The notes: generated by a model not told the origin, from the letters alone. Shown: positions 4,976 through 5,700, numbered from the stretch's first letter. The stretch: DNA of 44,926 nt from an uncultured Gammaproteobacteria bacterium (GCA_964471375.1 CAYYFM010000073.1:1-44926); one strand, 5' to 3'. Translations and numbers: made by a program.

Positions 4976-5652
4976 GGCGCGAGCACAATTACAAATTCAC
5001 CCTTTATGCTAGTCGATTTGAGCTGTTCTGTCACATCTGCGGCTGTTCCGCGATAAATCGTTTCATAGAACTTAGTAAGCTCCCGACAGACAACAAGTTT
5101 TCTGTCACCACCCCTCATCGCCCCTTCTATTTCCCCCAACGTCTTCAAAATACGATGGGTGCTCTCATACATCACAACGGTACTCTCAATAGCCGCCACC
5201 TTTTTGAAAAATGTCTGTCTCCCTTTCTTGTGTGGCGGAAAACCAAGAAAGATAAATTCATCAGACGGAAATCCAGACACAGAAAGTGCCGCAATGACTG
5301 CACTCGGACCTGGAATGGGGACGATCGCGACATCTGATCCAAACTCGCGAACAACCGCCTCCACAAGCATCCCACCAGGATCAGAAATTCCAGGAGTTCC
5401 AGCATCCGTCACAAGTGCAAGCGATTTCCCTTCTCGCAACATCGCAAGAATTTCGTTCGTTCGCTTTGTATCAGAGTGTTGATGGTATGCAACAAGCGTC
5501 CGTCGAATTCCATATACCGCTAGTAACTTGGAAGTCACGCGCGTGTCCTCACACAAAATCGCATCAACCAACCCAAGCGTTGCTTTCGCGCGCTCGGTTA
5601 TGTCTGACAGGTTCCCAATTGGAGTTGCGACGATGTAGAGAGTATTGTTCAT
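4906..5652 (-). CDS. rsmI: 16S rRNA (cytidine1402-2'-O)-methyltransferase
   Basis: LYIVATPIGNLSDITERA and VTDAGTPGISDPG are typical RsmI motifs. The start is set at ATG 5650-5652 (MNNTLYIV); the track's longer ORF begins at a GTG (5685) inside a repeat. The last ~20 codons and the TAG stop are repeat sequence. Confidence 0.88.
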   Translation of the reverse strand: MNNTLYIVATPIGNLSDITERAKATLGLVDAILCEDTRVTSKLLAVYGIRRTLVAYHQHSDTKRTNEILAMLREGKSLALVTDAGTPGISDPGGMLVEAVVREFGSDVAIVPIPGPSAVIAALSVSGFPSDEFIFLGFPPHKKGRQTFFKKVAAIESTVVMYESTHRILKTLGEIEGAMRGGDRKLVVCRELTKFYETIYRGTAADVTEQLKSTSIKGEFVIVLAPNATPTKALASVGKKVARNSKGL

Positions 5653-5700
5653 AGGGACTTTAGTCCCGTCAGGACTGGACGCCACTAAAGTGGCTAGGAA
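5652..5700. repeat. palindromic element abutting the rsmI start codon
   Basis: TAGGGACTTTAGTCCCGTC-aggactg-GACGCCACTAAAGTGGCTAGGAA. Confidence 0.9.

Follow-up and report, generated by a model that had tools for sequence, protein, structure and literature searches.

The window analyzed here, a stretch of 44,926 nucleotides, is contig C73 of a draft genome (G000; 1.14 Mb in 98 contigs, 47% GC) whose host, going by the names of homologues, would be a member of Candidatus Uhrbacteria (Patescibacteria/CPR). On the minus strand of the window, a gene of the DUF3179 family (5749-6732; Pfam PF11376, E = 2e-66), with its TAA stop codon at 5751-5749, is followed by rsmI (4906-5652), coding for a 16S rRNA C1402 2'-O-methyltransferase of 248 residues (PF00590, E = 5e-29); the nearest RsmI homologue among the matches listed shows 88% identity, and the source names read 16S rRNA (cytidine1402-2'-O)-methyltransferase. 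Between the two genes, and all on the same strand, lie a perfect tandem array, (TTCCTA)9, at 5695-5748 (period 6, 9.2 copies and 100% matches according to Tandem Repeats Finder), and two copies of a short repeat unit. Unit 1 (5678-5700) is in forward orientation, reads TTCCTA-GCCAC-TTTA-GTGGC-GTC and forms, with a stem of the GCCAC type, the hairpin GCCACTTTAGTGGC (GCCAC-TTTA-GTGGC) at 5694-5681. Unit 2 (5648-5670) is in reverse orientation, reads GAC-GGGAC-TAAA-GTCCC-T-AT-GAA and forms, with a stem of the GGGAC type, the hairpin GGGACTAAAGTCCC (GGGAC-TAAA-GTCCC) at 5667-5654, which is followed by T-ATG-AA; the linker between the two hairpins is GTCCAGTCCTGAC. The end hexamer of unit 2 holds the ATG of rsmI (5652-5650), preceded by a T at 5653, and the public gene call for the contig starts the 248-residue protein (P0001) at this codon. 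The last TTCCTA copy (5700-5695) is unit 1's own flank, and the array has grown out of the TTC-CT-A hexamer at the end of this unit.

The junction had been described before in a sequence-only reading, which placed a double hairpin and a nine-copy hexamer array upstream of rsmI and the ATG within the end of the repeated element; its coordinates and sequence at the junction are correct, and both the hairpins and the array were recovered in our analysis. The same reading drew attention to the frame that stays open from the stop codon of the upstream gene to the ATG of rsmI. The TAA and the ATG are indeed separated by 96 nt that are in frame and hold no stop codon, but trivially so: in the unit only the ATG frame (DGTKVP-M) is stop-free, as the TAA of the loop and the terminal TGA interrupt its two other frames, and TTCCTA contains a stop codon in no frame. 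The open frame is therefore a by-product of the unit sequence.

The two hairpins at rsmI are opposite-orientation copies of a unit with the formula TTC-NN-A / G-SS-AC / TTTA / GT-SS-C / GTC and a 5-bp stem. A strict search of the 1.14-Mb genome returned 172 units, with none expected by chance; the stem is GGGAC in 100, GCCAC in 44 and GCGAC in 13, and the 14-nt hairpin core alone has 102 exact copies in the genome against 0 expected (window test). Essentially every hairpin is bordered by T..GAA, the dinucleotide in between being variable (AG in 39 of the 172 units, AT in 32, TT in 27, AA in 26, GT in 19, GG in 12, and rarer others). The proposal that the element has the consensus TAGGAA and that the rsmI start arose from it by a one-base change, from AGG to ATG, does not hold: since NN varies and is AT in 32 of the 172 units, TATGAA is a frequent allele and not a one-off mutation. 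It is found at unit ends in non-genic arrays as well, for example in TATGAATGTGTTCTTA on contigs C1 and C74. By eye, no coupling of NN was seen between the left and right flanks of doublets or between neighbouring units. At the other end every unit finishes with ..C-GTC(C) and so reads CGTC, where the first C is the last base of the stem, such that the tag is not fully unpaired. With crude gene calls, 90 units are intergenic, about 65 lie in predicted ORFs on either strand, 13 lie over stop codons and four or five over start codons; this scatter is that of a mobile repeat filtered by selection and not of a dedicated leader. Units are present in six of eight genomes of the same genus, and in none of the 16 genomes of other genera that were searched.

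Several minor observations bear on the behaviour of the family. Short tandem arrays with periods of 6 to 36 grow from the T-NN-GAA or TTC-NN-A flanks (window 18879-18933, and contigs C13, C19, C55 and C72 of G000), the (TTCCTA)9 array at 5695-5748 being the simplest flank-derived array. Orthologous intragenic units differ in NN (AT vs GT and AT vs GC, in L057 of the relative G008 vs contig C63 of G000, and L065 of the relative G004 vs contig C76), and one such pair also differs in stem type, GGGAC vs GCCAC, with both arms changed; these differences at orthologous sites suggest replacement or conversion rather than point mutation. An in-frame unit copy in rlmN lies in a loop of variable length among relatives, where the boundaries of the element are unreadable.

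Many features of the unit are those of the REP/REPIN-RAYT systems, with which it shares a hairpin of 20-30 nt, the occurrence as singlets, inverted doublets and clusters, a copy number above 100, and a Y1_Tnp gene flanked by units (Di Nocera et al., 2013, PMC3733652; Bertels and Rainey, 2011, PMC3116915). The unpaired end tag of REPs (GTAG or CGTC) may have a counterpart in the conserved ..C-GTC flank of the unit. The units are short palindromes in many copies and mostly extragenic, as REPs are (90 of the 172 are intergenic), and, as in a REPtron, a Y1 gene is flanked by the same repeats, although its Pfam score of 24 bits is marginal. This gene (contig C1, L068:1249-1818, minus strand; IS200/RAYT-like, 184-189 aa) matches PF01797 just above the cut-off of 23 bits, has an HYHF motif, is preceded by six units and followed by three (L068 about 1140-1260 and 1810-2100), and its TAA stop codon lies inside the loop of a unit. 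Two weaker Y1_Tnp matches were found in the genome, one of them in the window (36430-36651, minus strand), where it scores 21.5 bits, below the Pfam cut-off, and lies in an open frame of 352 aa, with a unit some 800 nt away at 37413; this may possibly be a second, degenerate RAYT-like gene. The units that flank the C1 gene carry the (C)GTC tag; for the CGTC-tagged class of REPs a dedicated transposase was not reported (Di Nocera et al., 2013, PMC3733652). Some features of the unit differ from those of described REPs. The TTC-NN-A flank has no described REP counterpart, and its variable dinucleotide can spell ATG or TGA; the host is a Patescibacteria with a genome of about 1.1 Mb; and the doublet differs from a REPIN in its unlike stems (GCCAC vs GGGAC). 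With unlike stems, the doublet at 5648-5700 would not form a single long REPIN hairpin, and the predicted fold is one of two 5-bp hairpins.

The context of gene starts in G000 was established from the 895 first ATGs delivered by a home-made codon-score gene caller, SD-like 4-mers being scored at positions -18 to -5. Such a 4-mer precedes 14% of the first ATGs, as compared with a background of 11% at internal ATGs; the 3'-end of the 16S rRNA keeps the canonical anti-SD, ..GGATCACCTCCTTTC (CCUCC; CCTCCT in DNA). A T at position -1 is found at 68% of the 895 first ATGs, at 72% of 390 unambiguous starts and at 88% of operon-internal genes with spacers of 0-15 nt, whereas the figures are 10.8% for internal in-frame ATGs and 13% when every ATG of the genome is counted. 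Among relatives, T is at -1 in all 20 of 20 rsmI loci across the order, and at 47-100% on other loci, as assessed with crude ORF calls. The main start signal in G000 is T at -1, SD-like motifs being barely more frequent than the background. The frequency of T(-1) peaks within operons, which makes it a signal for translation and not for the start of transcription; the peak of 88% at operon-internal genes also led us to reject leaderless mRNA, with transcription starting at a purine (+1) preceded by a pyrimidine (-1), as a source of the T. We likewise rejected TAGGAA as a weak SD, as the strand of rsmI reads UUCCUA and, in the copies of the other orientation, AGGA is only 2 nt from the ATG. The sequence-only reading had pointed to the lack of an SD at rsmI, and no SD-like 4-mer was found upstream of its ATG; however, because about 86% of the starts in this genome are without one, its absence at rsmI is no peculiarity and is uninformative. 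An ATGA overlap between stop and start codon occurs in 40 native gene pairs.

Comparison with relatives shows an empty site. The element, or a structure like it, is absent from the rsmI junction in all 39 relatives with a match, and the (TTCCTA)9 array is also absent in the relatives examined. In the closest relative (G008; 88-90% amino acid identity) the junction is element-free and reads ..CTCCCA TAA tt ATG CCA ACT CTC TAT.. (MPTLYIV). In seven relatives of the same genus the stop codon of the DUF3179 gene lies 2-4 nt before the ATG of rsmI, and the N-terminus is MPT, MST or MKPT; six of the seven begin with ATG CCA or ATG TCN and are one residue shorter than RsmI of G000, and none begins with MNN. 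The seventh (G007) begins with ATG AAA CCG, has the same length as in G000 and reads cTATGAAA in an element-free junction. G000 has an insertion of 96 nt at this place, and its RsmI begins with MNNTLY as compared with MPTLY/MSTLY.

Two sister species show what a unit can do at such a position. In G004 (L062), a doublet ending in ..GTCCC TATGAA T stands directly before a kept host ATG, the gene beginning ATG AAT ATG ACG CGA ACT TGG, where the G000 orthologue has ATG CAA CGA ACT TGG. As the host ATG follows a complete TATGAA, the hexamer is part of the unit, whose own ATG is automatically in frame. In G003 (L054), a single unit has taken the place of the junction that reads TAG cgtgt ATG in G000; the upstream gene stops at the TAA of the loop, the downstream gene starts at the ATG of the unit, and TTT stands at the position of the host ATG. 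In G000 itself, four more long and well-scoring ORFs have their first ATG in the TATGAA end of a unit: dprA (C64), a GT2 glycosyltransferase gene (C74), comEC (C86) and a hypothetical gene (C10). Three of these genes (GT2, comEC and the one on C10) depart from their same-genus orthologues in N-terminal length; GT2 has gained one residue, and the C10 protein has two residues fewer ahead of a conserved KP than any of its five same-genus orthologues. The dprA start is unchanged and coincides exactly with the ancestral position, which in G006 reads CTATGAAC (cTATGAAC) in an element-free sequence. At the GT2 locus (C74:22650-22712, plus strand) a single unit forms an ATGA junction, in which the TGA of TATGA overlaps the ATG of the glycosyltransferase gene; the upstream gene runs through the hairpin (..EETGDQTGLKSL) and ends at this TGA. 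In G008 the two genes are 11 nt apart, with no unit.

We consider it likely, with a probability of roughly two in three (about 0.68), that the insertion of a REP-type doublet captured the start of rsmI, the hairpins being passive cargo. A GCCAC/GGGAC doublet would have entered the former stop-start junction of 2-4 nt between the DUF3179 gene and rsmI, and slippage would have lengthened the outer hexamer of the doublet to (TTCCTA)9. In the copy next to rsmI, NN is AT, and the resulting T-ATG-AA, an exact match to the start consensus of the genome, would supply at once the ATG, the T at -1 that is the main start context of this SD-poor lineage, and a TGA in the +1 frame that mimics the native ATGA overlap of stop and start. 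The start of rsmI would thereby have shifted to the ATG of the unit, giving MNNTLY in place of the ancestral MPTLY or MSTLY, and a second, composite element would have replaced the C-terminus of RsmI and its stop codon (see below). The anatomy of the junction, its empty state in relatives, the altered termini of RsmI, the start context of the genome and the further loci are observed, whereas we infer both that the ATG arrived with the unit and that the codon is used. On the comparisons made, donation of the ATG by the unit appears to be favoured over a pre-existing ATG by roughly two to one. The earlier suggestion that the elements provide initiation is supported in a limited sense: the AT allele supplies, or at least carries, the ATG and the T(-1) for rsmI, for four other genes in G000 and for at least two in sister species.

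The alternative, that the ATG is ancestral and that the unit landed just 5' of an existing T-ATG-AA, either because T-NN-GAA is (part of) its target or because tight junctions are the sole sites where it is tolerated, would leave the element as a supplier of upstream sequence only. We regard this as rather unlikely. The dprA start and the element-free cTATGAAC of G006 fit it well, as do the element-free cTATGAAA at rsmI in G007, the 139 of 895 genes in G000 that begin with TATGAA, and the presence at grx (see below) of a unit beside an unchanged ancestral ATG. Against capture of the start also counts that an insertion alone would not turn MP into MNN. An ancestral ATG fits less well with the ATG CCA or ATG TCN of the nearest relative and of six of the seven same-genus rsmI genes, and with the absence of MNN from all seven. 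Moreover, the hexamer is brought by the unit in G004 and is joined to units in non-genic arrays, and host starts have been lost or shifted in G003 and in the C10 gene. 

The other end of rsmI also carries repeats. A composite element of three short units and one long-stem unit (GCCAC-TTTTTTA-CCCACC..GGTGGG-A-GTGGC) lies between rsmI and metG (4846-4975, given on the plus strand). On the minus strand it codes for the last 22 residues of RsmI (NATPTKALASVGKKVARNSKGL; 4909-4974), and the stop codon, TAG at 4906-4908, lies in the loop of a hairpin at 4902-4915. The 119 homologues listed, of 220-253 aa, cover 89-92% of the RsmI query and end 3-8 residues past GEFVIVL, and the 22-residue tail is found in none of them. 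In G008 rsmI ends with GEFVIVLCPIST and overlaps the start of metG by 17 nt, in an element-free sequence. With unit sequence at the start of rsmI, and in its tail and stop codon, both ends of the gene have thus been rebuilt by repeats. The metG gene follows (3319-4836, minus strand), its ATG (4836-4834) lying 9 nt past a unit (..GTCCCGTCC gtaatcgt ATG); its N-terminus also differs, being MSYYYITTT here vs MPNFYLTTT in G008.

The grx gene, which had been taken to show the same arrangement as rsmI, does not. Here a single unit of the other orientation, TTCAAA-GCCAC-TTTA-GTGGC-GTC, is followed by aagtcct and the ATG (8484-8516, minus strand; ATG at 8486-8484), such that the start codon lies 7 nt past the opposite (GTC) end of the unit. 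Element-free relatives have an identical ..tcctATGACCGT.. (CCT-ATG-ACC) and the same N-terminus, MTVTVYSTPTCPYCK; by this comparison, the start codon of grx is to be read as ancestral and not element-derived. In G002 there are independent units at the grx junction.

A second alternative is that the double hairpin and the hexamer array form a cis-regulatory 5' leader of rsmI, which would occlude the start, serve as a standby site or couple rsmI to the gene before it; occlusion and coupling had been put forward by the sequence-only reading. REP elements in E. coli have reported effects on the mRNA stability and translation of neighbouring genes. The units of rsmI lie in an apparently co-transcribed junction, no promoter-like site being found on the minus strand at 5653-5748, and the region from -20 to -1 is more structured than in about 82% of the genes. 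However, the predicted fold of the 150-nt leader consists of two separate hairpins of 5 bp, the AUG is unpaired in its centroid structure, and the z-score against shuffled sequences is -0.89; the folding energy of the region from -40 to +30 is at the 28th percentile among the 895 genes, the predicted openness of the AUG region (-3 to +12) exceeds that in 92% of the genes of the genome, and the accessibility of the AUG is above the median in four of the five genes that start in a unit. The predicted fold thus leaves the AUG open, and occlusion is unsupported. As for coupling, the 2-nt spacer of the relatives (TAA tt ATG) suggests termination-reinitiation, and it is this coupling between the DUF3179 gene and rsmI that the insertion, as judged from the spacing, would abolish; it does not create one. 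Measured against known cis-regulatory RNA leaders, the rsmI leader has no Rfam match at E ≤ 1 (scan of 4700-6000), a structure that is absent in the 39 relatives, an open AUG, and, on the minus strand, no T-run after the hairpins. The relatives do without the element at rsmI, and the placement of the 172 copies, with 90 between genes, about 65 within predicted ORFs and 13 over stop codons, follows the pattern of a mobile repeat. A regulatory leader is therefore very doubtful, and the hairpins are most likely the passive cargo of a RAYT-type mobile repeat, with no role as a regulator of translation.

The position of the start within the family was assessed with the best 120 RsmI homologues (220-253 aa), of which 116 could be scored for the offset of the LY[IV]V (ATPIGN) motif. 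The motif starts 2-4 residues past the initial Met in 102 of the 116, the largest offset being 10; with the ATG at 5652-5650 the offset is 4 (MNNT-LYIV), and the next in-frame start-type codon on the 3' side would cut off the conserved motif. This ATG would thus be the only start of rsmI compatible with the family, its use being suggested by homology and context. Translation from GTG 5685, which would add an 11-residue, element-encoded N-terminal extension (MASSPDGTKVP-MNNT..), is highly improbable: it is the first start-type codon in the frame open from 5748, and the DGTKVP frame is also the one read in intragenic copies of the unit, but it would set the motif at an offset of 15, has an A at -1, as do about 10% of the starts in the genome, and sits within the stem of hairpin 1.

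Overlaps between REPs and the N-termini of ORFs were tabulated by Di Nocera et al. (PMC3733652), who judged many of these REPs to be extragenic since downstream starts were available; rsmI differs in that no downstream start fits the family. Further parallels come from two other groups of repeats. The Neisseria REP2 and Borrelia IR repeats, in the account given by Delihas (2011, PMC3184786; citing Morelle, 2003, and Dunn, 1994), lie directly upstream of genes, form two stem-loops and carry the ATG of the downstream ORF. The ATG inside the repeat is shared by the unit at rsmI; in that account, however, REP2 has a promoter and a ribosome-binding site as well and is tied to a regulon, whereas the rsmI unit is without promoter or SD, is a RAYT-type palindrome and provides an ATG from its AT allele only. 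The RPE palindromes of Rickettsia (Ogata et al., 2000, as cited in PMC3733652 and PMC3184786) are fused in frame to proteins that are still expressed, their N-termini included, in a reduced genome. As described there, RPEs are about 100-150 bp long and add internal or N-terminal peptide segments, whereas the unit at rsmI is mostly outside the protein, to which it gives only the Met-Asn codons at the 5' end; at the 3' end it is a tail of 22 residues and a stop codon. The kind of event, in which a repeat reshapes the ends of a gene, is already known, and the host group is new; the particular twist is a variable flank dinucleotide that spells an ATG/TGA junction favoured by an SD-poor translation system. 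For annotation, this means that mobile palindromes can rebuild gene ends in repeat-rich CPR genomes, and that a conserved housekeeping gene may owe its start as well as its stop to repeats. The loci described also form a stepwise series of a selfish repeat taking over a start codon without killing the gene, from the empty site (TAA tt ATG), through a unit ATG in frame two codons before a kept host ATG (G004), to the loss of the host ATG (G003, and probably rsmI in G000).

In E. coli, pairing of U(-1) with A37 of the initiator tRNA is supported experimentally (Hollerer and Jeschek, 2023, PMC10018350). G000 shares the U at -1 with this quadruplet pairing, and the same mechanism may operate in its lineage. 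Bacteroidia, with their 'Kozak-like' contexts (Baez, 2019, PMC6847099), offer a likeness in that the anti-SD is kept, the SD is rarely used and a nucleotide adjacent to the start carries the signal; they prefer upstream adenines, whereas G000 has a single U at -1, at 68-88% of starts. SD-scarce CPR lineages have been documented (PMC9297842, PMC10783764), and in the literature on Patescibacteria/CPR we found descriptions of such lineages only and none of a U(-1) rule. A search of the draft assembly with aragorn gave no initiator tRNA gene; in the single tRNA(CAT) that it detected, the anticodon stem did not resemble, by eye, the three consecutive G-C pairs of an initiator. Tentatively, and at somewhat less than even odds, we propose that in this order of Patescibacteria a U-AUG quadruplet, read by A37 of the initiator tRNA, replaces the SD, UAUG being purged elsewhere in the genome; that the T-AT-GAA end of the REP is a portable, self-sufficient stop/start junction, with TAA in the loop and TGA plus ATG in the end hexamer; and that spreading repeats create or replace the starts and stops of genes and so drive the evolution of gene termini in compact genomes. 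If general in Patescibacteria, the U-AUG signal would provide a simple natural system in which to examine how starts are recognized as quadruplets. In this clade, starts are to be predicted from the T(-1) context and not from the SD. T-ATG starts within the window include those at 2781, 4836, 5652, 6732, 6781, 7394 and 8486.
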